Part shown: positions 3,611-63,048 of the stretch, piece after piece | Position numbering within the stretch: the first letter of the stretch is position 1 | How the letters are laid out: each line of letters opens with the position of its first letter | Origin: Nitrosopumilus sp. | GTDB taxonomy: Archaea; Thermoproteota; Nitrososphaeria; Nitrososphaerales; Nitrosopumilaceae | Direction of reading: 5' to 3' | NCBI GenBank assembly: GCA_965214775.1 | Contig: OZ243974.1 | Coordinates: 480,001 to 544,000, forward strand | Length of the DNA: 64,000 nucleotides | Made by a program: the position numbers and the translations under genes | Notes under the pieces: model-generated | Database searches by the model: none | Told to the model about the DNA's origin: nothing | The model's input: the letters and a program-made list of their open reading frames with translations, nothing else

Positions 3611-4014
3611 GGCCGCCTTGCCTTCCATCCATCTGCATGGGGCTGTTTTCTTAAAAGCAGAGACAGGGTCCGGACGCGAGGGTCTGCCCCTTCAGAAGGC
3701 GCGGCGTGGGGGTGGAGGGGGGCGTGGTGATCAAGACCCCGGCCGGCGGTGCCGCCCACGGGGAAAGCCCCTGCGTCCGGATTTTCAGGATTTGAAAAAG
3801 CATCTCCGGCAACTGACTGCGTCGGATGCCTTGGAAGCCATGGTGACGGTTGAAGATCCTTGATCATCAAAAGGCGCATTCCGGCGCAGATCATGCCGGC
3901 ATGTGTTGGGGAACTCGGCCGCCACCGTCCATATCAGGGACGATCCAAGTGGGACGTCCAAGTACCGGTGGAAGGCACAGACCACGGCGGTTTTTGACGA
4001 ACCGTAAATGTTCG

Positions 4015-4803
4015 TCAGGATCTCCTTCTTCCCCCAACGATTACGCTTGGGATTCCATAGTTCTTCCTGTACTTGTTGACATAGTCTGCGATATCGCCGC
4101 TAAGCGAGTCATTTGATATGTCGTCAAATATTATCGCGCAGATGTTGGGAAACCTTTCTTGGTACTCCTCAAGCTGGGCCCCGAGGTTGCGCAGATCCGA
4201 GCGCTGCTTTGGCACCTTGAGCTCCAGCACGTACCTGCCGTCTACCAGTATGTCGATTCTGTCGTTTCCGATTATGGTTACCTGCCGGTCGATCTTCCTG
4301 CCGGGAAACTTGGCCTTGAGAAAGATCACCAGCTGCGATTCAAGGTGCTCCTCGTTTGATATCTTTTCGGGCTCAAACTCGGCACGTATCAGGTCGATCA
4401 TCGGCCCAAAGTCGCCGCGCCCATGCTCCGGGCCGCCTGCGTCCCTGAAAAAACTCGGGGATACAATGCGTCTCTTTTTTGCAAACTCGCTGAGATGGGC
4501 GTACCTTATCTCCCCGCCGGGGACGTGCCTCCAGATAAAGTCAAGATAGTCCTTTCTGGATGGCGGGATTTTACGCCTCCTTCCGTTGTCATCAGTATCG
4601 ACCTCCGGCTCGGGTTTTTTATTCAGGTATTTTTTCAAAAACTCCTCAAGATCAGGTATCTCAAAGTGTTCCAGGAGATCGTCGACCCTGCCACGGATTT
4701 CATCGAGTTCGTGCTGCCTCTGCCTCCTTTGATCCTGAACCTGGTCGTATTTCTTCTTGGCATCCGATAGGATCTTCTTCCAGCCCACGCGCAGCTCAGG
4801 CAT
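4015..4803 (-). CDS. PD-(D/E)xK nuclease-domain protein
   Basis: C-terminal EEHLESQL...RIDILVDG...LELKV...QLEEY pattern. Confidence 0.65.
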   Translation of the reverse strand: MPELRVGWKKILSDAKKKYDQVQDQRRQRQHELDEIRGRVDDLLEHFEIPDLEEFLKKYLNKKPEPEVDTDDNGRRRKIPPSRKDYLDFIWRHVPGGEIRYAHLSEFAKKRRIVSPSFFRDAGGPEHGRGDFGPMIDLIRAEFEPEKISNEEHLESQLVIFLKAKFPGRKIDRQVTIIGNDRIDILVDGRYVLELKVPKQRSDLRNLGAQLEEYQERFPNICAIIFDDISNDSLSGDIADYVNKYRKNYGIPSVIVGGRRRS

Positions 4804-5104
4804 GGCAGATATTTAATTTTTGACTGGCATGTGGGACAAGAGTCTGCCCTCCGGGAGATGCGGCACAGAATGCGTGATCATAATAACCTCGGCATGTAGT
4901 GCAGTTGTGGCCAGACTTGACATGGCTGACCGCTTTTTTACAGCCGGCTCTGGTGTTTTTCAGAGTCAGAATATACGTCAGGGCCTGATTGTATCGTACG
5001 CGGCGCCTTTTGCCTCCACACATGCCACGTAATGCTGTCTGTTTTGCATGCATGGCCGACTTGCTATCGGAATATTTTGATCCCGGAGACTGCGTACAGG
5101 GTGA

Positions 5105-5320
5105 CTAGTCGCCGTACTTGGCATAGTGTTCCTTCCACTCTGCAACCCTTTTCTTGATGGCCTGTTTTACGGGCTCAACTGCACCGGGCTCCAGCTCGGA
5201 GAGCTTGAAACCGCCATGACCATGAAGCACGGCAAGCTCTTCTGCGGTGACATATTCCGACATGTGCCCCCTTTCGTATGTCGGATTCTTGAACAGTTCA
5301 GATAAACTTGTATTTGCCAT
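5105..5320 (-). CDS. Small protein overlapping the upstream gene by 23 bp (candidate immunity/antitoxin)
   Basis: 71-aa ORF; weak similarity to 23126-23311 and 23491-23694. Confidence 0.55.
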   Translation of the reverse strand: MANTSLSELFKNPTYERGHMSEYVTAEELAVLHGHGGFKLSELEPGAVEPVKQAIKKRVAEWKEHYAKYGD

Positions 5321-5936
5321 TGCTGTATACCACCACTATCTCTTTTTGGTTGTACTTGTTCTTAAACATTAGCAGTTTTTTCACGTCTGCGCTTATTATC
5401 ATGCCCACGTCATTGTCTACCCTGTTCTTATCCACGTCTGTCCACGTTCCAATCGACGGCGTATATCCCTCGCTTACAGTTCTCTCAAACTCACGTTCAG
5501 ACGTCTCATCAAACGGCCTCGCGTGATGTGTGCGTCCTATGATCCCTACGGGCTTGCCGCCTATGCCGTGTGCGTCATAGAACCTCCTACGATGCGCCGG
5601 ATTAAAGACGTCAAATACGGAGTTGGTTGCATAGTCATACGTTCCACTCCCTCCCTCTGCCATGAGTTTATTCATCGCAGGCAGGCCGTTGGAGAATTCA
5701 GATGCCTTTATCCTTCCGCCGTGCCTGCTCAGGGGGTCGGGCTTTATCGGTTCGCCCTTTTTGTAATTTATCACAGACCGCCTGCCTCCACCCGCTACTG
5801 GAACCTCCCTCCTTATCCATCTTGTGCCCGGACTCGTCAAGCCTTCCTGCACGTGGCGGGAGGAACCTCCTGTGCCGGCAACCATAAATTCGTGAAAGCC
5901 GCCTGCTGCCGGTAGGCGTATTTGTTCATAAAACAC
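5298..5936 (-). CDS. Hypothetical protein, C-terminus homologous to 22714-23148
   Basis: IGTWTD...NDVGMIIS...LMFKNKYNQKEIVV motif shared with 22714-23148. Confidence 0.6.
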   Translation of the reverse strand: MFYEQIRLPAAGGFHEFMVAGTGGSSRHVQEGLTSPGTRWIRREVPVAGGGRRSVINYKKGEPIKPDPLSRHGGRIKASEFSNGLPAMNKLMAEGGSGTYDYATNSVFDVFNPAHRRRFYDAHGIGGKPVGIIGRTHHARPFDETSEREFERTVSEGYTPSIGTWTDVDKNRVDNDVGMIISADVKKLLMFKNKYNQKEIVVVYSNGKYKFI

Positions 5937-6139
5937 TTTACAAACTTTTGCTCGCCAGGATGCCAGTTACCCGGCGGCAAGTGAACCGTCTCCGAGGATC
6001 TTCTCGCAGACCTCACATATGAGGCCGCTTGGCCAGCAATGAGGCGGGACAAGTCACGACTTTGCAGGTGCGTACCTCATTGACCTCGCACGAATCAGAT
6101 CTCTAAATCCTTAATACTGCCACAGTCCTGTTCCAGCGC

Positions 6140-6373
6140 ATGAGATTTCTGGTGGACGAAAACCTCTCAAAGAACAAAAAATCCCTGGTTGATCACAGGA
6201 ACCTGAAAAACGTCAAGGATGAAATCGACGGAGGGGTTTCTGACGAAAGGATCATCGAATGCGCAAAAGGCCACGGTCGCGGAATCTACACCCGGGACAA
6301 GGGGTGCGCCCTGCTTGGACTGATTGCAGGGGTTATCGTATGGTACAGGGATCAAGAAACAAGGAGGGCGTAA
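6140..6373 (+). CDS. DUF5615/PIN-like protein, short
   Basis: MRFLVDENL...SDERII...IYTRDK pattern. Confidence 0.6.
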   Translation: MRFLVDENLSKNKKSLVDHRNLKNVKDEIDGGVSDERIIECAKGHGRGIYTRDKGCALLGLIAGVIVWYRDQETRRA

Positions 6374-10677: not shown

Positions 10678-12805
10678 GGCTTAAATCTATAGTGTCGTTT
10701 TGCAGGCAGATGATCGTACAGGGAACGGTACTTGCGGCGCTGCTGCTGCTGTGCGCGGCCCCCGTGGCCATATACGGGGAGGAGCTGTGGGTCCCCCGGC
10801 ACATGATTGCGGGCCAGACCTATCACGGAGTAGTAATCCTGCCAGAGGCCTCGCCGCACGGATCCCTGGTACTGCTCTCCTCGGGCGGGGACGTCGGGAT
10901 GCCACAGAGCCTGTACATACCGTCGCTGCACAACCACGGGATATTCGAGATGGTGCCGGAGGGAGACGGCCCCGTCGAGATCCTTGCAACCATACACGGG
11001 GCGCTCCACTCCGCAGAGAGCACCGTATACCCTGAGACTTCCTCCCCTGCAAGGTTGCAGCTGATCCTGCCTGCCAACGCCACCCTCGCTGATTCCATGA
11101 TCGGATATGTAGCAGTCGTGGACGAGCACGGCCTTCCGGTCATATCAGATGAGACCATCAGGGTCACGCTTGCCGCATCAGGATCAGTCCAGGTGCCTTC
11201 CGGCGTGCACATTGCCAACGGCACGTTCTATGACTCGTTTTACATGGATACCGAGGGGCCGGGCGGGATAATTGCAAGCGCCGCCGGACTGCAGCCGGAT
11301 CACGCCGAGATGCAGAGGGTCCGGGACGGGGTAACGGTGAGAGTCGGGATTGCGCCGGATATTGCAATGCCGGACTCCTTTGCGTACTATTACGTCTGGC
11401 TTGAAAAGGACGGCGCCCCCTTCAAGCCGCCGGGCACGGCAAGGGCGTTCATACACTCCAACAACCATGACATCGCAAGGACCCATGTCAGTCCTGCCTT
11501 TGACTCTGACGGGTTTGCAGTAACCTTGGTCGACGGGGTCGCACGCGGGGTGATATACACGGGTTCAGCTGGCCATGCCGTCATATCTGCAAGCATCCCG
11601 GAGCTCGGCATGGGGCAGGACATGATGTTTGTCGGGGCCGCCAGGTTTGACGGCATGCACGACGACATTGACGAGAGGCACGCATACATGGTATCTGAAC
11701 AGCGGGGGGATCCGGAGGCCAACCTCATACGGTCGTGGATATATCCTGATATAACCGACGGGACGGCGTGGGGGGTTGCAGCCATGTACAACGTGGACAA
11801 GGACAGATACCTTGACGCAAGGCTGGATGAGTCGGGCAGGCTTGAGACTGTCATATCCGAGGACATGATACTTGCACCCGTGGAGACCGACGGCAGGACG
11901 GTCTATGTCTCCTCGCCATACGGCCTGGAGCATGCAGACGCCCTTGTCATGAGATATGACATGATGCCCACAAACGCCGCCGAGTTTGAGATCAGGGGGA
12001 CCGGTGCCGGAAGCTACGAGATGTCGCTCTCCGGCCAGGGGCTGGAGCCCTCATCGTCCCGGGTAAACGTCACCGAGCCGCACGGCAGCAGGTTTCAGCT
12101 CAGCATATCGGCGCTTCCGGTGCTTGGCGACACGTGGCAGGATCTTGCCATGATATCAGTCGTGGACGGGGACGGCGCGATGGTGGATGCCGCCGAGATC
12201 CTTGGAAGGGACGCGGAGATCTCCGTCGTGGCGCCCGGGGGCATAAGCCCGGGCCCGATCCGGCCGGCCCACTCGGGCTCCGCCATACTGGACGGAACGC
12301 TGGACGGGCCGGCGCAGATCACGGCAATACTTGACGGCGTGGGATCGGCCAGCTCCGATATCATTCCTGCGGGGGTGGCGACCTCCCTTGAGCTGCTGCT
12401 GCCCGGATCAGTGCATATCGGCGAGGAGTTTCCGTTTGCGGTACACGAGACAGACAAGCTCGGCATTCCGATACGAAAGGCAGATTCGGTAAGGATATCG
12501 ACGCCTCTTGAGCTGTCCGCAGGCGAGCACATGGTATTGCGCGAGTCCGGTACGGGAAACGTGTCTGCAATATCGGGCGCCGGGGCCGACGGCGCGCAGA
12601 TATCGGGGTTTGCCAATGTAATGCGCGCGGAGCTTGACGTGGATCAGTCCAGGCTCAGGATAGGGGAGACGGCGCGCATCGAGGTAATCAACGACATAGA
12701 TGCGCAATATTCGATAGATACGAGGCAGCCCTTTGAGCGCGTCTCTGACTCGGTATTCGTGATAACCGCGGACAGCGAGGGCGAGTCCACCGTAAGCATA
12801 CTTGC

Positions 12806-48926: not shown

Positions 48927-50211
48927 TTAAATATGTAGTAATAGCCAGGCATGATCCAAGATATGGCCCAAGTTCTGCCACTTATTCGGGTGATCCTGGG
49001 CGGTGCTACGGATCGGGTGGCCGCGTGATGGTTTGGATGCCATCTTCATCAGGCCCTCGATCCTGCTGATGACCGGCTCCATCCTTATGCCTGCCTGCTC
49101 GGCCGGGGTTCTCTCAGGAGACGAGTGCACCCTTACAAAGTCATGGTGGACCCTCATGGCATCTATGATCTTCTGTGATGACACGGGTATTCATCCCGCG
49201 CATCACCTTCACCCTGTCCCTCATGGTTCCATTGAGGCGCTCCACGCGAGAGTTCAGTCCCTCATGCCTTACGGAAACACTTCGGATGTTTTTTACTCGC
49301 GGGTTTCTTCTTGTAAAGTATTCCTTTTGAAACGCCTCATCATATGACGCCAGGCCATCATGTATTACCGCATGTGTCACTTTTGTTTTTGATTTTGCGT
49401 CTGCAAACACGGCTCTTGCATCTCTTATTTCCCTCCTTTGACTCACCACGCCACTTATCCAGAACCTCGTAGAATCATCCATAAAGTTCCACAACCACTG
49501 GTAATGCCCCTTGTCCATTGACTCGCGCCTTACGTGGACCACCATTTCGTCTACCTGGTACACTCCTCCTAAATTCGGAAGGGTCAGTGAGTCAACGAAC
49601 GGAGCTACGACTTCTGCAAACCTCTGGACCCACCTCAGCACGGAAACGTCTGATATTTTTATGCAGTAAAACTGCTTCACATGATCAGCTATCTTGCGTA
49701 ATGAGACCCCTTTGAAGTACAAGTCGATCGAGGCACAGATAATCTTTGAGTCCTTCTTAGAATTTACAAACCCAGCATTCACCACAAATCGGTAACCGCA
49801 GTTTTTACACAGGTATCTCTGGATCGTACCTTTTTTTGCGTGACGCTTGCCATTCTTAATTATGTCTCCCTGTTTGCAGTTCTCGCACTCTATCCTTTCT
49901 TCGGGAATTGCCAACACAACATCGTCTTGTTCAGCTACCTTTTTTCCAAGCTTTTTTGAGAACAGCACTGCACAGATGTGCTTGCACTGGATCTGCCGAC
50001 TCTTAAAGTCTGGGCAGCTGCAGGCCCATCTGCCATCCTTCCGCCCACCTAGGTTTCGTCCATACTCCTTTCTTACGTCGTACCACATATCGCTGCTAGA
50101 TTGTGACTTGACTGCATAACGCAGCTTGTTGATTTTCCTTATTGGATGATCTGCCGACGCAATCTCCATTCCGCGTACTTGTCTTTGCAACTCCTGTTTT
50201 GTTTGGTACAT
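48927..50211 (-). pseudogene. IS6-family transposase with N-terminal SWIM and zinc ribbon, frameshifted near 49185
   Basis: CSCPD...CKH; QVDE, HDGLASY, NSRVERLNG; C-terminal HDFVRVH...TPAEQAG in another frame. Confidence 0.75.
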
Positions 50212-50769: not shown

Positions 50770-52338
50770 CTATGGTTTAACAAAATTCGCCGTATCATTT
50801 TCAATGGTTTTTATTTCATTATTGTTTTTAATTTTTTTAATTTCACCATAAATGTCAATGTCGTCTTTAATTTTTTTGCAAATTTCTTTACATTTTGTCA
50901 ACTCTGGTGTTTTTGTTCTAGTAATGCTAAAGTCTTTCACATATGGTTTTATCTTTTTAAATAAATCCGTATTTAAAAATTCCATCAAATATATCTCATA
51001 AATTAGAGCATCCAATACTTGATAGTCCAAATATGTTTTTTCTTGATCATTAGAGTATAATGTTTGTATTATGACAGTAATTTTTCCAACTATCTCTTGA
51101 TTCTCTTTTGCAGTTTCTTTTATTTTACATTTTGCTAATACTCCAATTGATTTAGTATGAAATTTTTTTTCATAATAGAATGTCATTAATCGTGAATTGA
51201 TTATTGCTAAAAGATATTCATACTCAAATTTGCTAGACGTAACGCATAATTGTTGAAATGTATTTGATAGTCTTGTTTCTGCTTTAGTAATCTGTATTCC
51301 ATACTTGTGTCTTATTTTTTGTAGATCTTTCCATTTGGTACCTGTAAACAGTGTGTTATCTGTAAAAAAATACCCATAATCTATTAAACCTACTAATGAC
51401 TTATTTGTAATTCTCCTAACTAATAGCTTGGTATGTTCAAAAACTTCTTTTATTCTTGGACGATGGTGTTCTTTTGGTTGATAATCTAACCATCTATGTT
51501 TTGAGGGTAAAAAGTATCTATCAATGTCTTTTCCTTCAATATATGGCAAAAAATTTTGTTTTTTATTATTAAACACATAATCTTCTTTTTTCTTTTTAAC
51601 ATTTTTTCCTGAGCCATGTTGCAGAATCATTCCTTGTTGACAATAAATTATGCTTTCTAGATCAACAGATTTTTTTTCAATCATATTAATGATCTTGTCA
51701 CTTTCTAAAGATCTTTTATCATTATATGTTAGATTAAGGTTTACTATGTGATTATGCTGTTTTAGAATAAATTGCTTATTTACTGTGATTTTTTTACTAG
51801 TGTCCCAATTCTCAAAAATGAATTCATAATCAGATGGATTATTCATAAGAAGAGTGATCACGGTATGTACACCAGCATTAGGGAATTTTCCCGTGTATGC
51901 TATACCCAAAATTGTAGTTTCATTAAATAAAAATTCTCTTAATGTGCTTGCAGATGCTGAATCTAGAATGCTATCTTCTGTTAGAAATCCAAAAAAACCC
52001 TTCTTTGCAAGCAATGATATTCCACGTTTCATAAATGCCCAGAACAGATCAAACCTTCCTTTCATGATGCTTTTATTTTTGTATGAGAATTGTTCTTTTA
52101 AGAGAGGTTTCAAACATGCGTCAATTTTCTTCACTTCTATGTAAGGAGGATTCCCAACAACAGCATCAAAACCTGGATTCTTTTTCCTTTTCCCATCATC
52201 ATTATGGAATATGTCCGGAAACTCCAGATCCCAGTGGAAGAACGAGTGCTTCTCTGCCACACGCTTGACCTCGGGCCACGTGCTGCCCTCGGCAAAAAAG
52301 TCAAGGCTGTTCTCGCCGATTTTTGCGACATAATCGCC
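50770..52338 (-). CDS. Silent/alternative C-terminal half of the methyltransferase (NPPY plus TaqI-C-like target recognition domain)
   Basis: Begins with sequence identical to 60636-60829, then diverges; KLLVRRI...YLLAIINSRLMTFYY; lacks motif I. Confidence 0.85.
   Translation of the reverse strand, partial: GDYVAKIGENSLDFFAEGSTWPEVKRVAEKHSFFHWDLEFPDIFHNDDGKRKKNPGFDAVVGNPPYIEVKKIDACLKPLLKEQFSYKNKSIMKGRFDLFWAFMKRGISLLAKKGFFGFLTEDSILDSASASTLREFLFNETTILGIAYTGKFPNAGVHTVITLLMNNPSDYEFIFENWDTSKKITVNKQFILKQHNHIVNLNLTYNDKRSLESDKIINMIEKKSVDLESIIYCQQGMILQHGSGKNVKKKKEDYVFNNKKQNFLPYIEGKDIDRYFLPSKHRWLDYQPKEHHRPRIKEVFEHTKLLVRRITNKSLVGLIDYGYFFTDNTLFTGTKWKDLQKIRHKYGIQITKAETRLSNTFQQLCVTSSKFEYEYLLAIINSRLMTFYYEKKFHTKSIGVLAKCKIKETAKENQEIVGKITVIIQTLYSNDQEKTYLDYQVLDALIYEIYLMEFLNTDLFKKIKPYVKDFSITRTKTPELTKCKEICKKIKDDIDIYGEIKKIKNNNEIKTIENDTANFVKP
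52145..52338. repeat. 194-bp perfect inverted repeat, left copy
   Basis: Exact reverse complement of 60636-60829 (compared base by base). Confidence 0.97.
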
Positions 52339-52343
52339 AGAAT

Positions 52344-52982
52344 CTAGGAAAAGTATTGCGACAGATCCGACTGTCTTGCTTTACTCTTGCCCGTTTTTTT
52401 CGAATCCGATGTTGCATCATGAATTATTTCGACCAAACGTTTCTTGTACTGTTCTCTGCCTGGAAGCGAGTTTGTTCTTCCTAGTTTGTTAAGATATTTT
52501 TTTTCCTTCTCAAAGAGATCTAACTTCTTGAGCATCTTGTGCTTTCTTTTTAGTGCTCTGTAGTATGAAAAGTACACAGAATCAATAATCTCGCTTTTCT
52601 TGAAAATCTTGACCACGGCCATTAGATCGTGAATGTAGTCCTTGCTTAATCCAAAATCCCTGGACATAGCCTCATTGTAGTTTATAATTTCAAACTCGTC
52701 TTCTACCGATTCATTGAACGCATTAATCAGATTTCCCAGCTCCCAGTACAGGGAGCTTGGCAGATCCTGATATTTTTCCTCTTTTAGCGATGGTCCGTAG
52801 AATAACTTTTTTGCAGACTGCACCGTATAAAGATATAGTTTTTTGAACTTTTCGATCTTTTTCTCCAGTGTGTTGCTGCTGCCTACGTAATATGTAAAGT
52901 CAACCAGAACGCTTGTCTTCTTGGTGTTGTGCATGTCCTGTGTTTGTACTATGCGGATGGGTATTCTATCTGTCAAATCCAC
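52344..52982 (-). CDS. DUF1016/YhcG N-terminal-like protein
   Basis: LYWELG...MSRDFGLS...FSYYRAL. Confidence 0.55.
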   Translation of the reverse strand: MDLTDRIPIRIVQTQDMHNTKKTSVLVDFTYYVGSSNTLEKKIEKFKKLYLYTVQSAKKLFYGPSLKEEKYQDLPSSLYWELGNLINAFNESVEDEFEIINYNEAMSRDFGLSKDYIHDLMAVVKIFKKSEIIDSVYFSYYRALKRKHKMLKKLDLFEKEKKYLNKLGRTNSLPGREQYKKRLVEIIHDATSDSKKTGKSKARQSDLSQYFS

Positions 52983-54499
52983 ACCGCATGCAGTATTTTT
53001 TCAAACTTTTCGAGGGTCTCTATGGCATCCATTTCTATCTGATCATTTTTTGCTTTGATCAGGGATGAGATGACCACCCTAGTCAGATTATAGTCACGTA
53101 GTGAGGGGTTTTTGGATACGGATTGTGAGAATGGATGTCCTATGTTGTACACTACCGCCCTGTTTTGGACATCAACCCACCCCTCACGTGGATCATCTGG
53201 GAAGTCCTCCGGGATTATGTAGATTCCTCTTGTTTTTCTGGTTTTATTTACTCCCTTTTTGTCGGCTTTGTCGTCTTGGTATGTTCCCGTTCCATGATCA
53301 TCGCCGCTAGGAGATTTTGTAGACTGGGAGTCGTTATCTGTCCTTTCACCCTCAGTCTCGCCTGTCTTGGGAGCTTGTTTCCCCGGGCCCTCGTTGATGG
53401 TAATATCCCCCTCTTCTCTTGCAACAGATATGTCATGCTCGCGCGGATTTGAAAATGGGTTTAGGAACTTTAGCTCCGGATTCTGTAGTATCTTGTCTAG
53501 TCTTTTGGTAAGCTCGTTTACAACTATGTTTGTTTTCGAGGTGATGTCTTCATGTTTGAAGATCAGTTTTCTTTTTTCTAATTCACTATACAATCTTTTA
53601 CTTACTTGGCCTCTGATTTTGTTGGTTTGAAAATTCTTCTTAAAGTTCTCCTTGTTGGCAACCAGATGTGCGGCAAGAATCGATACGTCTGCCATGCAAA
53701 GAATTTTTTTACTGTTGTCCTCTTTTATCAGATTAGCCCATTCTACCAGTTCATTTTTTATTCTTTTTCCAAATACTGAGTATACGATATGGCGCCGGTC
53801 TTCGGGAATTTCGTCTTTACATATCCATATGTGGCATGGTATGTAGCTGTTTGCAACCTTTATTTTTACGTGTATACTTTCCCCTGAAGGTTGCCAAGGC
53901 ATGATAGGTCTGTCATCTACGGATAACTCTAATTTCTTTGAAAGCAATGCGTCATTGAACCAGAATCGCAACTTTTCAGATATGTTCTCCTGCAGCCAGA
54001 TGTATCCCTCTGGGCTTACTTTGACCCTGTACGATGTTCCGTATTTGTGATCTAGCTTTCTATTTCCGGTTATCTGAGTGATTGAGCCACCATTCAAGCT
54101 GGAATCATATTGGACATCATCCCCTGCTCTGAACATTCTAGAAGCTAAAATGTCGCTGTTTTTGCCAGTAATTGTAATAATTTCTGCCTGATCCCATGCG
54201 GCTAGAAATATTTTTGCGCCAACGCCTGCAAATCCAATGCCCTCGCCTTTTGTTTTTGTAGATGATGAGATTGTGTGATATCTCTCAAAGTCAACTGGCT
54301 TCATGGGTGGCCCATCGTTTAGAAATACGATGTAACAGTTGGAGTCATTACGGACAAGATTGATTTTGATTTTTTTTGCCTTGGCATCAATGCCATTTGC
54401 GATGGCTTCTAAAACAAGAACTTCCTCTTTTGGGTATTCATACATGTCAAGCAAGTTGTTTAACGTTTCAAGTATTTTGATCTTAAGCTGTTCAGTCAA
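52973..54499 (-). CDS. GHKL/MORC-type ATPase
   Basis: EAIANGIDA, NDGPPM, GIGFAGVGAK, GT motifs. Confidence 0.8.
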   Translation of the reverse strand: MTEQLKIKILETLNNLLDMYEYPKEEVLVLEAIANGIDAKAKKIKINLVRNDSNCYIVFLNDGPPMKPVDFERYHTISSSTKTKGEGIGFAGVGAKIFLAAWDQAEIITITGKNSDILASRMFRAGDDVQYDSSLNGGSITQITGNRKLDHKYGTSYRVKVSPEGYIWLQENISEKLRFWFNDALLSKKLELSVDDRPIMPWQPSGESIHVKIKVANSYIPCHIWICKDEIPEDRRHIVYSVFGKRIKNELVEWANLIKEDNSKKILCMADVSILAAHLVANKENFKKNFQTNKIRGQVSKRLYSELEKRKLIFKHEDITSKTNIVVNELTKRLDKILQNPELKFLNPFSNPREHDISVAREEGDITINEGPGKQAPKTGETEGERTDNDSQSTKSPSGDDHGTGTYQDDKADKKGVNKTRKTRGIYIIPEDFPDDPREGWVDVQNRAVVYNIGHPFSQSVSKNPSLRDYNLTRVVISSLIKAKNDQIEMDAIETLEKFEKILHAVWI

Positions 54500-54504
54500 C
54501 TGTG

Positions 54505-55446
54505 TTAGCTGTCCGGTTTGGAATAATATGTTTTATGAAATGTTACACTGGCATCAAGATGCCGGTACATGTCAAGCAGCTCTTCCACGGTGTATCTGTT
54601 GTACTGCCCCATGTAAAACTCATGCCCTGCAAGGATATGCCCTAATCCGAACTGTATTCGGTTGGCCTTTGTTATGAAATATGCACGCAGGCTGTGCACG
54701 TGTATCGTGTACCTATTCTGCTTGCAATGATCATATTTTTTCAGCATGCCGGTTTTTTTCCTTGCAGCCGCAAAACGCTTGGTCACAAGGTTACTGAACT
54801 GATCTGATCTTCTACGTCCTGCAAAGACATAATCCGATGCTTTTCCTATGTCTATCCTGTACCGGATCATACTCGATACTTGTTTTGAGAAGAATGTGAC
54901 ACGTGATCTTCCGGTCTTTGTTATGGATGCAGGTATTCTTACCGCTATGTTTTCATGTGCAAGATCAAGATTGGAAATCCTTATTTGTCCAAGCTCCCCC
55001 ACTCGCATTCCGCTAGATACAAGCGCCAGAAGATGAAATCTGAGCTCCGGTCGGGATGCTTCAAGAATGTTTTCCATGATCTCAGGCGTGATGGGCAGCT
55101 GGCTCTCACGTAGCAGTTTTGGAAACTTCAAATTTTGTTTTATGCCTACTGGATCAAGCTTTATCCCGTTGTACCACAAATATGATCTTAATGAGTTAAA
55201 GTAACACCTTATGCTTGAGGAAGCAATCCCACGTCCCACATTCCATTCTATCCACTCCTGAAGAAATGGGTAGATATCCTCTTCATTGTAGTGAGACAGA
55301 TCCTGGGCGTCTATCCCGAATGCGCGAACGTTGTTCACTGTACATTGAAATAGTTTCTGTGTTTGTTCTGATCTCATTTTCAATGTAGACATATAACTTG
55401 ACAGTGTCTTGTGTTTGGTACCACGCGGCGTATACAAAACCATCAT
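54505..55446 (-). CDS. Tyrosine recombinase (candidate invertase)
   Basis: SSGMRVGE (R), TKTG (K), HSLR (H,R), LAGH (H), downstream Y. Confidence 0.9.
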   Translation of the reverse strand: MMVLYTPRGTKHKTLSSYMSTLKMRSEQTQKLFQCTVNNVRAFGIDAQDLSHYNEEDIYPFLQEWIEWNVGRGIASSSIRCYFNSLRSYLWYNGIKLDPVGIKQNLKFPKLLRESQLPITPEIMENILEASRPELRFHLLALVSSGMRVGELGQIRISNLDLAHENIAVRIPASITKTGRSRVTFFSKQVSSMIRYRIDIGKASDYVFAGRRRSDQFSNLVTKRFAAARKKTGMLKKYDHCKQNRYTIHVHSLRAYFITKANRIQFGLGHILAGHEFYMGQYNRYTVEELLDMYRHLDASVTFHKTYYSKPDS

Positions 55447-55606
55447 GTAAGATTTTTAAAACTGCTATATTACAGAAGATGTGAACAAAACGCAATTCAT
55501 GCATTTCAAACCATAGTCATGTTGTATTTTATCTTGATCGTGGAAAATTAAACACAGTCCAATCGTCACCTTTATCTTGAGGCCTTGATCATCACCACAC
55601 AACAGG

Positions 55607-58600
55607 ATGCTACGAGAAGACAACGTGATTGACAACAAAAACGTAGTTCTAAAAGAAGAACTGTTAAAGATCTTGCCAAAGACCAAAAATGCAAGCATTG
55701 CTGTAGGGTATTTTTTTATATCTGGACTATCAGCTGTGGTGGAGTCATTACAGGGTGTTGACAAAGTTCGCCTGCTCATATCAAACACCACAGATAAGGC
55801 GACTGCAGAATCACTCATTGAGGGATTTCACAGTATTAACCAGGTAAACAGGGAGCTCGGAAGGCAAAGTCACGTGAACGACGACAGAAGGGACAGAATT
55901 CGGGACGATTCAAAAAACAACATCAAAAAATCACTGGAATACATGAGTCAGACAAGCGGCGACAAAAAGACAGTCATGCTTCTCATAGAGATGATGAAGA
56001 CAAGCCAGATGGAGGTGCGTGTCTATCCAAAAGAAAAGCTGCACGCAAAGGCCTACATATTTCAGCCAAGAGACACCGACTTTGCACAAGGGCTAGGTAT
56101 AGTGGGATCCAGCAACCTGTCCCTTGCGGGAATATCCCATAACAGCGAGCTGAACCTCAAGACATTCAATGCTCCAGATGTCAACCAACTTTTGAGTTGG
56201 TTTGATGAGTTATGGGAAGAGGGATTGGATTTTACTGAAGACTTTAACATACTGTTGTCAGAATCGTGGGCAGGAACAACATATTCTCCTCGGGATGTGT
56301 TTCTCAAGGCCGCATACTTGGAGTACAAGGACAGATTGGAAGACCAGCATGAGATCGATCCGATCTGGGGTACAACGTTTCCGCAACTATTCCCGTTCCA
56401 GAGAAACGCCGTGGATCAGTGTCTTACGATGATCGAGTCCTATGGAGGGGTGATAATCGGAGATGTGGTGGGCCTAGGAAAGACATATGTTGGAACCGCA
56501 CTGCTAAAATACCTGCAGCTGCAAGATTACCGCCCGCTGATAATCTGCCCACCGCCACTTGAGCCAATGTGGGAAAAGTTCTGCGTAGATTATGAGGTTG
56601 ATGCAAAGATACTCTCACGAGGAAAACTGTCCCAGGACAGCTTTGAACTATATCAGGACTACAGATACAAAGATCGTGACTTGGTACTACTAGATGAAAG
56701 CCACCATTTTCGAAACAACGACTCACGACAATATGAGAATCTACAGCAATTCACACAGGCCCGCGATGCCAAAGTCATACTACTTACTGCAACGCCGTTT
56801 TCCAACGAAGCCAAGGACATCAAGAATCAGATAATGCTGTTCCACCAGTCCGAAAAGACACAGATACCGCCTGCGAACGAAACTGATCTCAACAGATATT
56901 TCGTCACGGTAAAAAAGGGAGAGGCCGATCTGGTGGATCTGCTTCGACACATCATGATCAGGCGAACACGGCGATATGTACTCAAACAATGGGGAGACAC
57001 GGATGAAAACGGGAGGGATTTCCTAAAAGTCGGAGATCAGGACAAGTATTTTCCCAGCCGTAAGATGAAAACACAAAGATACGACATAAACAAAGTTTAC
57101 CAGAACAAGTATGAAACAATCCTAGAATGTCTTCAGCGAGGCGAGCTTACATTTGCCAGATACAGCATTGGACTGTACGTAAAAGACGAATACACGGACG
57201 TTGAGTTGTACAAGGAGCTTGGAGCAGCTGGAACAAAACTCATAGGACTGATCAGGACGATTCTGCTGAAAAGAATGGAAAGCAGTCTTGAGGCGTTTCA
57301 GGAAAGCATTGCCCACTATATAAAAACCCACGAGATCTTTCTTAAACTGCTAGAGGAAAAAATCATCCCCATAGGTGATGTCTCCTACAAATCAATACAC
57401 GATCTCATAGAATCAGACTCAGATTACAGTACCATATATGATCCTGAGACAATAGATGAGTTTCGCAAAAAGATCGAAAAGGCTGGAGAAACAAAATACA
57501 AGTTTGAAGCATTCAAAATAGAGGAACTGACTCGGGACATCGAAAACGACATCAAGATCTTTAACACGATTGATGGCCTGATTCACAGGCTGTCATACAA
57601 GACGGATGACAAACTAAAGAAATTACAGGAATTGCTGGATAAAGAATATGTCGGTAAGAAGGTTCTGATTTTTTCCGAGTTTACAACCACGGCACGATAT
57701 CTGGACAAGCACCTGAAATGGAAAGGCCACAAGGAACAGGTTGATTCTACCACAGGCAACATGATTCAATGTGCAAGAAGGTTCGACCCCGACAACAACC
57801 CAAGCAGTGAAAAAAGGCCCGACAAGTCAGAGGAGATCTCACTGCTTATATCAACAGATGTCCTGTCAGAGGGGGTAAACCTCCAGGCAGGACAGGTAAT
57901 CATCAACTATGACTTTCACTGGAACCCTACCAGACTCATTCAAAGGGCAGGACGAGTGGACAGAATAGGAAGCAAGAACGAATTTGTCACTGTACACAAC
58001 TTTCTTTTGGATCCAGATATGGAGAAGGACTTTAGGTTGGAAGAGCATGTAGACCGGAAAATAGACAGCATACAGCAAAAAATCGGCGAGGACTATCCAA
58101 TATTAAAGCCGGGTGAACCGGTAAACACAAAAGACACTTACGCAATCTACAAAGGCGATGTGTCCATTCTTGATCACGAAGAGGAAAATCCACTAGAGCC
58201 CTCAAGGTTTGAAAAAATGTTAACGGATGTACAAATGAACAGCCCGCAGTTATGGGAAGATTTCACATCGATTCCAGACGGAATCAGAGGTTCTGACGGG
58301 ACAGAAACTGGAGGTGTGCTGCTCTTGGCATGTGAGAGCGGGACAGAAAGAAGCGGCAAGGTGAGAAAATACTATCTTGTCACACCAAACGAAAAAGTAA
58401 ACGAGATATCCTCACAGAAAGCACTGGAAATTCTAGAATCGGAGGACAAATCAACACATGCCACCCCTTCAAGTCACGACAGCCTGGTCGCTGCAGGATG
58501 GCGCCAATTCGTGGAGGAATCAGAGCAGATCAGGGCAAGAGCCTCAAGCACAAAACTAACCAGGCCACAAAAATGGATACGTGAAAAACTAATGAAGATG

Positions 58601-58858
58601 GACAAAAACGATACGTTTACGGATAAAAGGCAAGAGATTGAAACTCTGCTAAAGGCATACTCTATCCCAATCCTCAAGGGAAAACTAAACAGAGAATTGA
58701 CAAAGATTACAAAAGCAGGCATGGAAGACATGGAGATATTGGGCAGCCTTAGTCAGCTGTACCTGCATTACAACCTGCAAAACCAGGTAAGACAGGATGA
58801 GGAGGAGGCAACATCCCCCAGAATCCTATACAGCATGTACGTTGGGAAACATGACTGA
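55607..58858 (+). CDS. PLD nuclease-SNF2-type helicase fusion
   Basis: LHAKAYI...GSSNLS; DVVGLGKT; DESH; LLTATP; SEGVNLQ; QRAGRVDRIG. Confidence 0.9.
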   Translation: MLREDNVIDNKNVVLKEELLKILPKTKNASIAVGYFFISGLSAVVESLQGVDKVRLLISNTTDKATAESLIEGFHSINQVNRELGRQSHVNDDRRDRIRDDSKNNIKKSLEYMSQTSGDKKTVMLLIEMMKTSQMEVRVYPKEKLHAKAYIFQPRDTDFAQGLGIVGSSNLSLAGISHNSELNLKTFNAPDVNQLLSWFDELWEEGLDFTEDFNILLSESWAGTTYSPRDVFLKAAYLEYKDRLEDQHEIDPIWGTTFPQLFPFQRNAVDQCLTMIESYGGVIIGDVVGLGKTYVGTALLKYLQLQDYRPLIICPPPLEPMWEKFCVDYEVDAKILSRGKLSQDSFELYQDYRYKDRDLVLLDESHHFRNNDSRQYENLQQFTQARDAKVILLTATPFSNEAKDIKNQIMLFHQSEKTQIPPANETDLNRYFVTVKKGEADLVDLLRHIMIRRTRRYVLKQWGDTDENGRDFLKVGDQDKYFPSRKMKTQRYDINKVYQNKYETILECLQRGELTFARYSIGLYVKDEYTDVELYKELGAAGTKLIGLIRTILLKRMESSLEAFQESIAHYIKTHEIFLKLLEEKIIPIGDVSYKSIHDLIESDSDYSTIYDPETIDEFRKKIEKAGETKYKFEAFKIEELTRDIENDIKIFNTIDGLIHRLSYKTDDKLKKLQELLDKEYVGKKVLIFSEFTTTARYLDKHLKWKGHKEQVDSTTGNMIQCARRFDPDNNPSSEKRPDKSEEISLLISTDVLSEGVNLQAGQVIINYDFHWNPTRLIQRAGRVDRIGSKNEFVTVHNFLLDPDMEKDFRLEEHVDRKIDSIQQKIGEDYPILKPGEPVNTKDTYAIYKGDVSILDHEEENPLEPSRFEKMLTDVQMNSPQLWEDFTSIPDGIRGSDGTETGGVLLLACESGTERSGKVRKYYLVTPNEKVNEISSQKALEILESEDKSTHATPSSHDSLVAAGWRQFVEESEQIRARASSTKLTRPQKWIREKLMKMDKNDTFTDKRQEIETLLKAYSIPILKGKLNRELTKITKAGMEDMEILGSLSQLYLHYNLQNQVRQDEEEATSPRILYSMYVGKHD

Positions 58859-61800
58859 CAAAAAACTAGAAAGTTTGGCATATCGACTCAGGGATCTGAC
58901 CTCGTTAAGAGATCTTTTTTCAGAACTGAACTTTGATTTTGAGGACAAGCCAGTGAATAAAGACAGCTGGAAGCAAGATCAGAAAGATAAGGTCACAGAA
59001 GCCAGGGTCATAGCGAGCAAAAACAACTATCAGATATGCTATATCAGAACAAACACAAACTCATTAAAGGATTGGAAGGGCATATCATCCCGAATAATCA
59101 AGGACAATTCTGGACTATGTATGGTGTGCTCGCACAATCCTGACGGGTTTAAGTGGGTCTTTTCAAGCCTGTCAAAAAACTTTTCACAGTCCTTTTCAGA
59201 GACCAGACACGTTCCAATAGACATCACCGGGGATTCCGGTGTGCCCAAAACCTTCATCGATTTTTTGGAGGCGCTAAAAATCAAGGGAAAGTCCACCACC
59301 ACATCCATCACCACCCAGATATCCAACGCATTTGACTCGTTCGCAGTACAGATTCACGACGAGCTTACCGTAAACGTGTTCGAGGCGTTGAAGATCCTCT
59401 CTGAAGGGATAATTCTGGACGAGTCCAACGAAATGCAGTTGGATGAACAGCTACTCGAGGAAATCCGAGAACCGGTATTCATTTTGTTATACAGGATCAT
59501 CTTCGTATTGTACGCAGATGACAGGGGAATTTTTCCAATCGACAACAGCACCTATCATGACGAGTTTAGCCTGAAATGGATCAAGCACGAGTGGTTGCTA
59601 AAGGGGCAGGATCCAAAAAAGATAGACGAATACGGTGTCCAGGAACGCTTGTGGCGACTGTTCAGACTGATCGAGTACGGCAGTGAGGATCTAGGATACA
59701 ACCCCGACAAGCTTTTCATGAAGCCCTACTATGGAAGGCTGTTTGACAGGCAGATCCATTCAAGACTGGAAAAATACAAAATAAAAAACCAGTATTTGCT
59801 GGAAGCCATCGGCCTGCTTACGCGCACACGTGACAAAAAGGGGAACTATTTTTTCCTCGATTATTCGGCACTGGAAACAAGACACCTTGGTTCCATATAT
59901 GAGCGCCTTCTGGAATACCATCTTACGGTCAAAGACAAAAAGATCGCGGAGCTTCCAAATCCAAAAGACCGGAAGGCATCAGGCAGTTACTATACCCCCC
60001 AGTACATCGTGGATTACATCGTGGAAAACACAGTAGGTCCGCTAATAGACCACATCATAAAGACGACCGCCGAACCTGACGAGCAGGTTGAAAAGATATT
60101 GGACTTGAATGTTTTGGATCCTGCAATGGGTTCTGGCCATTTCCTGGTGGGAGTTACAGACTACATTGCACGGAGGATATGTGAAATAGAGTTTACTGGG
60201 GAGATACCCGAGCAGGTGTTTGTGGAGCGCAAAAGAGACGTGGCCAGGCGGTGTATCTATGGCGTAGATCTAAACCCATTAGCGGTGGATCTGGCCCATG
60301 TTTCCCTGTGGCTTGAGACGCTTTCATCTGAAAAGCCACTATCTTTTCTGAGTGCACACCTAAAAACAGGTAATTCGTTAGTTGGTGCCAACATAGACGA
60401 CATATTTGCAAAACAGACAACACTGATGGAGTCGGCAAAGGGCAGAACGCAGTTCAAGAAAACTGTCAGGGACTTTATCATGCTTGAACAGCTTGAGGAC
60501 GATACTGCAGCTGCAGTAAAGACAAAGATGGCAAAGTACAAAAAAATTCAATCAAAGGGAACCATATACTATCAGCTGAAATTTTTACTGGATGCCAAGG
60601 TGGCAAAAAACTTCGGCGTGGAAGTTCCACCGTTAGGCGATTATGTCGCAAAAATCGGCGAGAACAGCCTTGACTTTTTTGCCGAGGGCAGCACGTGGCC
60701 CGAGGTCAAGCGTGTGGCAGAGAAGCACTCGTTCTTCCACTGGGATCTGGAGTTTCCGGACATATTCCATAATGATGATGGGAAAAGGAAAAAGAATCCA
60801 GGTTTTGATGCTGTTGTTGGGAATCCTCCATATGGAGCGAAGATATCAAAACATGAACAGAAATACTATAAAGAGAGATTCTCAAAGGTAGGAAGTACTG
60901 ACACGGCACAATTAATGATGCGTGCATCCTTTGACCTGCTATCCAAATTTGGAATCAATGGATTTATCGTTCCCAAGGCACTTACATTTGCATCAAATTG
61001 GAAAAAAATTAGAATGCATCTGATGACAAATTTATCAACACTGATAGATTGTAAAAAAGTGTGGAAGGACGTAAAACTTGAGCAGGTTATTTACATATAT
61101 CAAAACAGTCATACAAGAGAATCCTATCTTACTGGATCACGAATAAAGCATGATCTTATTGCAATCACAAAAATCGACAAGAACGAATGTACGATGTTTG
61201 AATTTTTGATTAGTGGGCTTGAACGAAACGAGATCACAGTGGGACAGAAAATACATGCAAAATCTGAGAAATTAGGAAAATATATTACCAACAATAGAGG
61301 ATGTATGCTACAAAATAAGATCAGAGAAAACGGCGAAGTGAAAGTAATTGGCGGTGCACAGATCCAACGATATTACATCACAAAGGAATTGAAAGGATAT
61401 CTAAATGCCAGAGACATTAACGATAACAAAGCATATATCCAAAAAAACTCGATTCTCGCACAAAATATTGTTGCACATGTTGAAAATCCAGTAGATCATC
61501 TAAAGATTACTGCAACAATACCACACAATGCCAGATTTATTGTATTAGACACAATAAACCAAATCACGGTAAACATGATCGACCCATATTATATCTTGGG
61601 GTTTTTAAATTCAAAAATATTAAACTGGTATGTATACAGATTTATCTTTGCCAAGGCAATTAGAACCATGCACTTTGATAGTACAGTAACAGATAGAATT
61701 CCAATTATTATAGACAAGAAAGAACAGGTAATTAAAAGGGTAAAAAATCTAATTCGGCTACATACAAAGCCTTCAACACTTCAAAGAGACAAAGACATAT

Positions 61801-61895
61801 TGACCGAAGAAGATGAACTAAACCGTTTGTTTTATCACATATTTGGCTTGACAGATGATGAAATCAGAATGATAGAGAGTTCAACTCCGTCTTAA
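58851..61895 (+). CDS. Eco57I/Type IIG-like N6-adenine DNA methyltransferase with C-terminal TRD
   Basis: GSYYTP, VLDPAMGSGHF, YGVDLN, GNPPY; ATGACTGA overlap with the helicase stop. Confidence 0.92.
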   Translation: MTDKKLESLAYRLRDLTSLRDLFSELNFDFEDKPVNKDSWKQDQKDKVTEARVIASKNNYQICYIRTNTNSLKDWKGISSRIIKDNSGLCMVCSHNPDGFKWVFSSLSKNFSQSFSETRHVPIDITGDSGVPKTFIDFLEALKIKGKSTTTSITTQISNAFDSFAVQIHDELTVNVFEALKILSEGIILDESNEMQLDEQLLEEIREPVFILLYRIIFVLYADDRGIFPIDNSTYHDEFSLKWIKHEWLLKGQDPKKIDEYGVQERLWRLFRLIEYGSEDLGYNPDKLFMKPYYGRLFDRQIHSRLEKYKIKNQYLLEAIGLLTRTRDKKGNYFFLDYSALETRHLGSIYERLLEYHLTVKDKKIAELPNPKDRKASGSYYTPQYIVDYIVENTVGPLIDHIIKTTAEPDEQVEKILDLNVLDPAMGSGHFLVGVTDYIARRICEIEFTGEIPEQVFVERKRDVARRCIYGVDLNPLAVDLAHVSLWLETLSSEKPLSFLSAHLKTGNSLVGANIDDIFAKQTTLMESAKGRTQFKKTVRDFIMLEQLEDDTAAAVKTKMAKYKKIQSKGTIYYQLKFLLDAKVAKNFGVEVPPLGDYVAKIGENSLDFFAEGSTWPEVKRVAEKHSFFHWDLEFPDIFHNDDGKRKKNPGFDAVVGNPPYGAKISKHEQKYYKERFSKVGSTDTAQLMMRASFDLLSKFGINGFIVPKALTFASNWKKIRMHLMTNLSTLIDCKKVWKDVKLEQVIYIYQNSHTRESYLTGSRIKHDLIAITKIDKNECTMFEFLISGLERNEITVGQKIHAKSEKLGKYITNNRGCMLQNKIRENGEVKVIGGAQIQRYYITKELKGYLNARDINDNKAYIQKNSILAQNIVAHVENPVDHLKITATIPHNARFIVLDTINQITVNMIDPYYILGFLNSKILNWYVYRFIFAKAIRTMHFDSTVTDRIPIIIDKKEQVIKRVKNLIRLHTKPSTLQRDKDILTEEDELNRLFYHIFGLTDDEIRMIESSTPS
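60636..60829. repeat. 194-bp perfect inverted repeat, right copy (inside the methyltransferase)
   Basis: Exact reverse complement of 52145-52338. Confidence 0.97.
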
Positions 61896-62306
61896 TTGAC
61901 ATGGTTAATACTCAGATGTCACACCACACAGCTTTGGCCAGCAATATGCATCGACATCCCGGATAATTGAACTGCAAAAGTTAGCACTTCAAGATCTTGG
62001 TGAAAATGTCCATCCAATAGGCCCAGTAATCTTGACAGATCATGCAGATCTGAAAGTATGAAGTCACGTCACTTACTGGCTAGACATCTAGTTAAAACAT
62101 CCGTCCACAACACGGTGATGATCCTTGCTTCTAATCCGTGCCGAATCAGACTGACCGTACTTTATAACTAACGTTGGCAATCAAGCAAATTCATGCCTAG
62201 TTGGTAAGGGGAAGCGATCACATATGCCTACGACCACCCGATCCGTAGCACCGCCTACGACCACCCGAATAAGTAGCAGAGCTTTGATCCATAATCTTAA
62301 AATATG

Positions 62307-62837: not shown

Positions 62838-62865
62838 CAGCAGTTTGGAAAAAACAACACATATC

Positions 62866-62976
62866 GTAACAGGTCGGGCTCTGAAAGCTGTTCCTGATTT
62901 TAGGCACGAATCTACACGGGAGACCTCCCCGAGATAACAAAACTCGCACTTGAACTTCCAGAGCCCGACCTGTTAC
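62866..62976. mobile_element. 111-bp MITE, IS66-like ends, 8-bp TSD
   Basis: gtaacaggtcgggctctg / cagagcccgacctgttac; cacatatc at 62858-62865 and 62977-62984. Confidence 0.85.
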
Positions 62977-63048
62977 CACATATCTCTCCCTCTCTCCCCC
63001 CCCAAGTCTTAAAATCATAAATAACTAATCCAGTCATGGAAAAGCAGA

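Follow-up and report, generated by a model that had tools for sequence, protein, structure and literature searches.

In bacteria, much clonal heterogeneity stems from phase-variable restriction-modification, which also contributes to bet-hedging against phages through variable resistance and to epigenetic regulation. In Mycoplasma, the specificity gene hsdS of Type I systems forms an inverton or shufflon with a tyrosine invertase. Gene-altering programmed inversions are well established in bacteria for hsdS, for pglX of bacteriophage exclusion (BREX) systems, for drmMI of the defence island system associated with restriction-modification (DISARM), and for Type II methyltransferases of the Cj0031-like kind whose genes adjoin a PLD+SNF gene, with long-read proof that includes the Bacteroides ovatus sequences CP083813.1 and CP044495.1 (Milman, Yelin & Kishony 2023, PMC9881135, in the text available); by its own statement, that survey covered bacteria only. 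The present study concerns a locus at positions 50770-61895 of a 64,000-nt stretch of the archaeon Nitrosopumilus sp. (GCA_965214775.1, contig OZ243974.1, positions 480,001 to 544,000; hereafter the window), in which a methyltransferase gene faces two alternative C-terminal halves across a pair of long inverted repeats. We consider it likely, with a probability of roughly 0.7, that the locus is a working, recombinase-driven two-state inversion switch of the specificity of a defence or modification system.

The Cj0031-like loci of B. ovatus, as portrayed in the available text of that survey, are built alike: an Eco57I-type N6 methyltransferase with a specificity part is encoded together with a PLD-SNF2 protein, inverted repeats overlap the methyltransferase gene, gene parts are swapped and a recombinase typically lies nearby. 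Their inversion is proven by long reads, whereas we infer that of the archaeal locus, which further differs in its host and in having its own recombinase clade. With BREX type 1 pglX and class 1 DISARM drmMI, as far as the accessible accounts describe them, the locus shares a homologous methyltransferase, switching by inversion and a recombinase gene. Unlike BREX, however, the surrounding island has neither PglZ nor BrxC, and PglX models reach at most 85 bits against cut-offs of 400-900 (NCBIfam PglX, 85 against 500); unlike class 1 DISARM, it has no DrmA, no DrmB (DUF1998) and no second helicase gene, the DrmD- and PLD-like parts being fused in one protein. In the published description available for L. 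rhamnosus, the middle part of pglX is swapped by nested inversions, whereas here the whole C-terminal half from motif IV onwards would be exchanged by a single one. Type I hsdS invertons (Streptococcus pneumoniae SpnD39III/PsrA, Bacteroides fragilis) are similar in having repeats in specificity DNA, silent partial genes, a tyrosine recombinase and methylome diversification; from the same partial sources, they rearrange a separate S subunit, while here the catalytic polypeptide itself has its split point in motif IV, and the exchange would take in roughly one third of its catalytic domain together with the recognition domain.

In MANTIS, Gao_RL and BREX-related (BR) systems, an N6 methyltransferase marks self and a helicase-nuclease restricts (10.64898/2026.09.23.753747; PMC12839542), the effector of type-2 BR systems being a fusion of HKD and Swi2/Snf2 parts (PMC12839542), according to the portions of these texts at hand. 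Such a division of labour is a plausible model of cooperation between the methyltransferase and the PLD-SNF2 protein described here, but MANTIS and BR systems, on the same sources, depend on a DUF499 AAA+ ATPase together with a co-regulator; Pfam detected neither among the seven proteins of the island, where the ATPase is of GHKL type. The words 'inversion' and 'recombinase' have 0 occurrences each in the available text of PMC12839542. By its defining components, the locus is not DISARM, BREX or MANTIS and matches the two-gene type of Cj0031-like methyltransferase with PLD-SNF2. Since the same system type inverts in bacteria, the kind of switch is already known. A first-pass annotation of this DNA had known of no such system for Thaumarchaeota, nor one in which the whole machinery flips while the target-recognition domains (TRDs) stay fixed; this claim of novelty was overstated, as the bacterial inversions confirmed by long reads are published (PMC9881135, in the part available), and the fixed-TRD arrangement is the same topology seen from another viewpoint, not a different mechanism. 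What appears to be new is the archaeal host and lineage, together with a recombinase clade of its own. No archaeal or thaumarchaeal restriction-modification inversion switch was found in the literature searched as full text, supplements and most subscription journals being outside that scope. A screen for archaeal invertons comprised 42 long-read data sets, 36 from Euryarchaeota, 6 from Crenarchaeota and none thaumarchaeal, and names no restriction-modification inverton in the available parts of its text (bioRxiv 10.1101/2023.03.11.532203).

Architecture of the locus and inversion in silico

The following features, in window coordinates, make up the candidate switch:

50770-52141, minus strand: unique part of the silent C-terminal half (TRD2), with the motifs after IV and TaqI_C; GC content 0.28-0.35
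52142-52338, minus strand: left arm, encoding GDYVAKIGEN...GFDAVVGNPP
54505-55446, minus strand: tyrosine recombinase of 313 aa, the candidate invertase (Phage_integrase 1.5e-15)
55607-58858, plus strand: PLD(HKD)-SNF2 nuclease-helicase of 1083 aa (PLDc_2, SNF2-rel_dom and Helicase_C, Pfam)
58797-60635, plus strand: constant N-terminal part of the methyltransferase (alpha/beta N-terminal domain, helical spacer, motif I DPAMGSG)
60636-60832, plus strand: right arm, terminating in NPPY (motif IV, residue 676)
60833-61895, plus strand: expressed C-terminal half (TRD1), 357 aa after NPP, with TaqI_C

A repeat search of the window delimited the two arms as 197 nt each, 99% complementary with one mismatch, 8297 nt apart and containing a perfect 194-nt core (52145-52338 / 60636-60829). 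Translation of either arm in the coding direction gives GDYVAKIGENSLDFFAEGSTWPEVKRVAEKHSFFHWDLEFPDIFHNDDGKRKKNPGFDAVVGNPP, their identity running from the codon of G614 to ...GFDAVVGNPP, immediately before Y, so that the repeat ends within motif IV. The genome, a single contig of 2,833,656 bases, holds exactly two copies of the arm, and both sit in methyltransferase-coding frames, the inverted repeat thus overlapping coding sequence. When the segment was inverted in silico, the N-terminal part was joined in frame to the other C-terminal half, no stop intervened and NPPY was kept; the enzyme then changes from 1032 to 1135 aa counted from the first ATG at 58797, or from 1014 to 1117 aa from the start at 58851. 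Between the arms lie the recombinase, the PLD-SNF2 gene, the N-terminal part of the methyltransferase, a GHKL ATPase, a 212-aa open reading frame (ORF) and a divergent intergenic region.

This anatomy bears out most of what the first-pass annotation had read from the letters: a perfect 194-bp inverted repeat ending in the NPP codons (now placed inside the 197-nt arms), a different C-terminal target-recognition half outside each copy, an intact tyrosine recombinase, and an in-frame enzyme of 1117 aa instead of 1014 aa after recombination, which holds from the start at 58851. Its inventory of the 8297 bp was correct for the genes it listed and missed the GHKL ATPase (52973-54499) and the 212-aa ORF (52344-52982).

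The methyltransferase, its two C-terminal halves and the PLD-SNF2 protein

The full enzyme is an N6-adenine methyltransferase of 1032 aa (58797-61895, plus strand), whose start overlaps the end of the PLD-SNF2 gene and whose Pfam domains are Eco57I (5.4e-24), N6_Mtase, MmeI_Mtase and TaqI_C. PADLOC models matched are DrmMI (2e-69) and PglX (1.9e-18), in addition to several Type IIG models (1e-35 to 1e-23). Motif I reads DPAMGSG and motif IV, at residue 676, NPPY; a gamma-class N6 methyltransferase and a C-terminal specificity domain are combined in one chain, as is characteristic of Type IIG/IIL enzymes. The model of the N-terminus is poor (mean pLDDT, the predicted local distance difference test, 54.8 over residues 1-400), and on it residues 24-167 weakly resemble, in a nuclease-like match, the N-terminal region of DrdV (Z 5.4, root-mean-square deviation 3.5, 112 residues aligned) and residues 186-400 weakly match the helical N-domains of HsdM and PglX (Z 5.6-6.2); a Foldseek search with the N-terminal model returned nothing at E <= 0.001.

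Both outer halves carry the remainder of the Eco57I methylase domain and TaqI_C, and sequence comparison revealed no significant similarity between TRD1 and TRD2. The silent half runs stop-free for 460 aa after NPP, without a conserved start (Eco57I 1.9e-22, TaqI_C 2.7e-13). GC content is 28-38% in the two halves against 44-47% in the constant part. A metagenomic protein of 1080 aa (P0206) has an expressed C-terminal half 61% identical to the silent half (50770-52338), with homology starting at GNPPY, whereas its N-terminal part is only 25% identical to the one described here. Specificity halves thus appear to move between methyltransferases of distant relationship, the modules having their boundary at motif IV. 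Since the 61%-identical counterpart of the silent half is expressed on so different an N-terminal part, the halves are best read as working, exchangeable modules joined at motif IV.

The PLD-SNF2 protein, presumed to be the restriction effector, matches the PADLOC models 'HKD+Snf2' (4.9e-70) and DrmD (3.3e-33) and, weakly, a DrmA model (5.6e-17). Its motifs are kept (H146-x-K148...GSSN, Walker A GLGKT at 289, DESH at 363), and Pfam identifies no recognition domain of its own.

Related genomes

Of 401 genomes sampled from the class, 28, including the present one (G000), gave a hit to the constant part at E <= 1e-20. Five other genomes have true orthologues of the methyltransferase (66-84% identity), and a further two carry fragments the size of an arm. 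The 16-20 kb of DNA around each related locus were compared, with the following outcome:

G240: arms of 190 nt, 100% identical, 7.5 kb apart; methyltransferase, PLD-SNF2, recombinase, arm, second half
G215: arms of 192 nt, 93% identical, 6.2 kb apart; gene order as in G240
G357: arms of 191 nt, 82% identical, 8.9 kb apart; order of G240 plus an insertion sequence (IS; DDE_Tnp_1) between the recombinase and the silent arm
G349 and G204: no arms; an orthologous operon, the DNA examined containing neither a recombinase nor a second half
G181: remnants only; frameshifted recombinase, truncated PLD-SNF2 and a 96-aa arm fragment
G304: remnants only; 40-aa recombinase fragment (the arm fragments of G181 and G304 span 81-96 aa)

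Start and end codons of the arms are identical in all three complete relatives. In a tree of all arms, those of the same genome are sisters in four of four cases; in the alignment, identity is 100, 99, 92 and 82% within genomes and 75-84% between them. With its shared boundaries, the architecture evidently arose before these lineages split; since the arms are nonetheless closest within each genome, they have been homogenised time and again in each lineage, and this concerted evolution is the footprint of recombination that recurred between them after the split. All four silent halves remain open for 360-460 codons after NPP, though they lack a conserved start. Over its full length (359 aa), TRD1, which is expressed here, shows 65% identity with the half that is silent in G357 (constant parts of the two genomes, 73% identical), and the silent position of G181 holds a remnant of TRD1 type. 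Judged from these alignments, the comparative evidence supports a maintained switch.

Further repeats and genes were observed at these loci. Directly after the methyltransferase gene of G357 (L036 3363-6381) lies a second tyrosine recombinase of another family (4447-5367), flanked by inverted repeats (e.g. 3606-3841 / 6033-6268, 236 nt, 99%) in which the distal C-terminal region is duplicated, an arrangement suggestive of a second specificity switch nested in the same gene. The 16-kb contig C49 of G204 (L040), on which the closest orthologous operon (84-89%) lies, has perfectly inverse-complementary 55-mers at its two ends (1-55/16033-16087), and a 95-nt, 83% inverted repeat (2491-2585 / 11238-11332) brackets the operon; a larger inverted repeat may have left these repeats as its signature in the assembly, or they may reflect a mobile element. 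In G215 (L038 1434-7039), a second, distant pair of methyltransferase and PLD-SNF2 (26-28% identity), in reversed gene order, adjoins the switch locus, the ~1300-aa family of this second methyltransferase having members in about 20 of the 401 sampled genomes.

The tyrosine recombinase

All six catalytic residues of the recombinase are present (R148, K177, H251, R254, H275, Y282), and the R-K-H-R-H-Y set is invariant or nearly so in alignments of 15 and 19 relatives. The enzyme is encoded within the segment that it would invert, in keeping with programmed inversions, whose recombinase gene lies in or beside the segment. Assignment as a XerA, XerC or XerD resolvase was rejected on scores of 70.2 bits against a cut-off of 220 (recomb_XerA_Arch) and 37 against 335 (XerC).

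Around 55 clusters of the protein collection are 52-68% identical to the recombinase, the next step down being at 45% or less. Among the 151 genomes of the genus, orthologues (at least 58% identity) were found only in G000, G240, G215, G357 and, broken, G181, all five placed inside such loci, and a search of 302 genomes from 26 other genera of the family yielded none. A profile search of genome contigs with the recombinase alignment returned four loci, from three genomes already in the comparison, and a search of metagenome contigs returned five distant integrases (29-35%) on short contigs. For 23 of the 54 other recombinase clusters, the longest contig is exactly equal in size to one listed for a PLD-SNF2 orthologue, which indirectly suggests that the two genes are linked in many environmental contigs as well. 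The clade, seen only in genomes of this genus and in environmental contigs, would thus be dedicated to such loci. Of the 64 third codon positions, 17 do not vary among the arms, and the one invariant run, the 9-nt AAAATCGGC, lies close to the inner end.

Int-pTN3 of Thermococcus nautili, likewise a tyrosine recombinase from an archaeon, inverts DNA between identical segments of at least 104 bp (PMC8371274, in the text available). As described there, this plasmid integrase produces large inversions of the chromosome and no gene-altering switch; the likeness drawn here is one of mode, not of sequence.

Read support

Sixteen sequencing runs were found, 13 of them with part of the stretch and no RNA run among these 13, and four were compared as Logan k-mer contigs. 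In runs X2 and X5, from two studies, the 194-nt repeat forms a separate contig at about twice the flank depth (X2, 131.4 against 66.5-73.6; X5, 15.4 against 6.7-13.6), both unique C-terminal halves stand at single depth, and the inner 8.3 kb and both halves are reproduced without differences. Because of this doubled depth and the recovery of both outer halves, the second copy is not a misassembly.

A joint between opposite strands in X5 (49900->62234, with loose ends at 62234/62284) was dismissed as a sign of inversion, being the contig of a left terminal repeat placed on its 89%-identical right partner. Low-depth contigs from runs of other organisms (X7 and X6) match parts of the silent half (50830-52097) and diverge just inside the arm (52172), which hints at similar cassettes on diverged constant parts in other strains.

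Proposed mechanism and alternative explanations

In the proposed mechanism, the locus would be a two-gene operon of a PLD-SNF2 nuclease-translocase followed by a gamma-class N6-adenine methyltransferase of Type IIG/DrmMI-like kind, with the target sequence set by the C-terminal half of the latter (the motifs after IV and the TaqI_C-type recognition domain). A recombination arm of ~190 nt would, in evolutionary terms, interrupt the gene at motif IV, and a second, inverted arm would head a promoterless alternative half. The segment carries the presumed promoter region, PLD-SNF2 and the N-terminal part; the two specificity halves lie outside and face inward. Acting between the arms, or stimulating recombination between such long identical sequences, the recombinase would invert the 8.3-kb segment, and each inversion would connect the N-terminal part, through motif IV, with the alternative half (1032 -> 1135 aa). 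The conserved arm length of ~190 nt may mean that the recombinase needs long identity, as reported for Int-pTN3. If the methyltransferase directs restriction targeting, as it presumably does by analogy with MANTIS and BREX-related systems, in which a helicase-nuclease is licensed by a methyltransferase complex (10.64898/2026.09.23.753747; PMC12839542), modification and restriction specificity should change together, because the PLD-SNF2 protein lacks a recognition domain of its own, and the population would then comprise subpopulations differing in methylome and in barriers to phages and mobile genetic elements. The gene string led by the recombinase would read into whichever half is silent, with regulatory consequences. 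We infer an appreciable inversion rate in this strain and this recombinase as the responsible enzyme. For the wider proposition, that lineage-specific tyrosine invertases of Nitrososphaeria flip a whole defence operon between two fixed cassettes at motif IV, through ~190-nt arms and in a homology-dependent manner closer to Int-pTN3 than to classical invertases with 30-bp core sites, we see even odds.

The two-state switch proposed at first pass is in this way partly upheld: its anatomy and in-frame logic are correct, and comparative support (four genomes, arms, silent halves, recombinase clade) speaks for a maintained switch that would act by inversion. Two checks suggested with it also turned out in its favour: read depth indicates that the second copy is genuine (a repeat contig at ~2x depth, both halves at single depth in X2 and X5), and three relatives keep the layout, the half expressed here being silent in one of them (G357, 65% identical). 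Its attribution to an archaeon agrees with a full-length archaeal match to the small-subunit ribosomal RNA in the genome, the organism being a Nitrososphaeria archaeon.

Several observations weigh against a switch in current operation. The second orientation was seen in no read or contig; the contigs of the four k-mer runs end at the repeat edges and are uninformative on this point, since short-word contigs collapse an exact repeat of 194 nt into one node in either orientation. The flipped fusion protein is absent from a collection of 5.8 billion proteins, on a word-limited search that makes this a weak negative, and the best full-length protein with a TRD2-type half is only 61% identical and has an unrelated N-terminal part. 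The arms of G215 and G357 are only 93% and 82% identical despite intact recombinase genes, so the presence of the recombinase is no guarantee of ongoing exchange. The comparative sample is small, with four complete loci that all belong to one genus and are thus not independent, and that the two halves recognise different targets would follow solely from their dissimilarity. Finally, the arms contain no clear core site for the recombinase, nor could dyad symmetry be established in them.

In a rival account, inversion is real but proceeds by general homologous recombination on the ~190-nt arms, the recombinase serving the mobility or resolution of the island or some other role. Identical arms of 190 nt suffice for general recombination, so that the part assigned to the recombinase is a proposed one; they far exceed a normal core site of 30 nt in length, which is conserved at 190-197 nt, and no convincing core site was found in them. 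Among named proteins, the recombinase is closest to integrases and XerA (70 bits against 220), transposon-like terminal repeats bracket the island, and pneumococcal hsdS inversion persists without a known site-specific recombinase (PMC6620402, in the part available). Nevertheless, we regard this explanation as unlikely: the recombinase clade was encountered only inside such loci (5/5 orthologues in the 151 genomes of the genus), the gene is missing from the two orthologous loci without a repeat (G349 and G204), and no att-like direct repeats of at least 20 nt surround the island. Long arms and a tyrosine recombinase are, moreover, compatible, since Int-pTN3 reportedly recombines identical segments down to 104 bp (PMC8371274, in the text at hand).

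The locus might instead be the frozen relic of a switch or of a cassette-exchange duplication, with no meaningful inversion rate at present and a second half that is simply an undecayed leftover. A single orientation is on record, and decay is evident in relatives, namely G357 (82% arms, IS), G181 (frameshift, truncation) and G304 (40-aa fragment). The present genome speaks otherwise: its arms differ at 0/194 positions, against 16-25% among orthologous arms of other genomes, the silent frame of 460 codons is unbroken in DNA of 28-35% GC, motifs are intact in the recombinase as well as in both catalytic proteins, and both halves occur at equal depth in runs of two studies, all of which makes a relic rather improbable. 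An assembly artefact, with the second arm and half misjoined or drawn from another strain, is scarcely credible, for although assemblers can mis-resolve repeats of this length and the window stems from a single-contig assembly, contigs from the runs of two studies agree fully with both unique halves and with the inner 8.3 kb, the 194-nt repeat contig has twice the depth, and three other genomes share the architecture.

Other genes of the segment and island context

The remaining features of the segment and of the surrounding island are as follows:

48970-49023: left terminal-inverted-repeat-like sequence of ~54 nt, with its partner at 62231-62286, the pair bracketing the whole island
49141-50211, minus strand: SWIM/DDE transposase of 356 aa, beside the left terminal repeat
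52344-52982, minus strand: ORF of 212 aa, last gene of the recombinase-side string, with its stop 5 nt before the left arm
52973-54499, minus strand: GHKL-type ATPase of 508 aa (HATPase_c_3 2.7e-10; weak MzaB match)
55447-55606, no strand: divergent intergenic region of 160 nt, between the recombinase string and the PLD-SNF2/methyltransferase operon

The minus-strand string is tightly packed, in the order recombinase, GHKL ATPase, 212-aa ORF, left arm and open frame of 460 codons. No meaningful family was obtained for the 212-aa ORF at E <= 5. In three genomes the module is accompanied by both the GHKL ATPase, an accessory gene, and the small ORF: G000, where the pair lies inside the segment, and G215 (L038 18236-19994) and G304 (L042 10994-13004), where it sits outside and downstream of the silent half or of what remains of that half; the stretches examined from G357, G240, G349 and G204 did not show the pair. 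The divergent region, with AT-rich, TATA-like stretches, is presumed to hold promoters that would move with the segment. A further ORF of 117 aa (55465-55818) is probably spurious, because its conserved part (residues 4-73) is antisense to the start of PLD-SNF2 in every locus.

The 13-kb island, comprising the transposase, both halves and the segment, lies between sdhA and a PadR gene and is flanked by the imperfect ~54-nt inverted repeat, which has internal sub-repeats and a third copy elsewhere in the genome (G000:C1:2590329-2590382). Related transposases (30% identity) stand beside the modules of G240 and G304, and the defence island may be transposon cargo. No target-site duplication was seen at the island, and the repeat search of the window returned no att-like direct repeats of at least 20 nt flanking it. 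A separate inverted repeat of 27 nt (89%, 67-nt spacer; 62861-62887 / 62955-62981) lies between the PadR gene and a PEP-mutase-family gene.

Significance

If the locus operates as proposed, it would be the first phase-variable methylome and restriction switch in Archaea, extending the phenomenon to the third domain of life, and would provide a compact archaeal invertase with defined substrates. Ammonia-oxidising archaea would then display clonal epigenetic heterogeneity and shifting barriers to viruses, and mixed methylomes would be predicted in cultures and metagenomes of these globally important nitrifiers.

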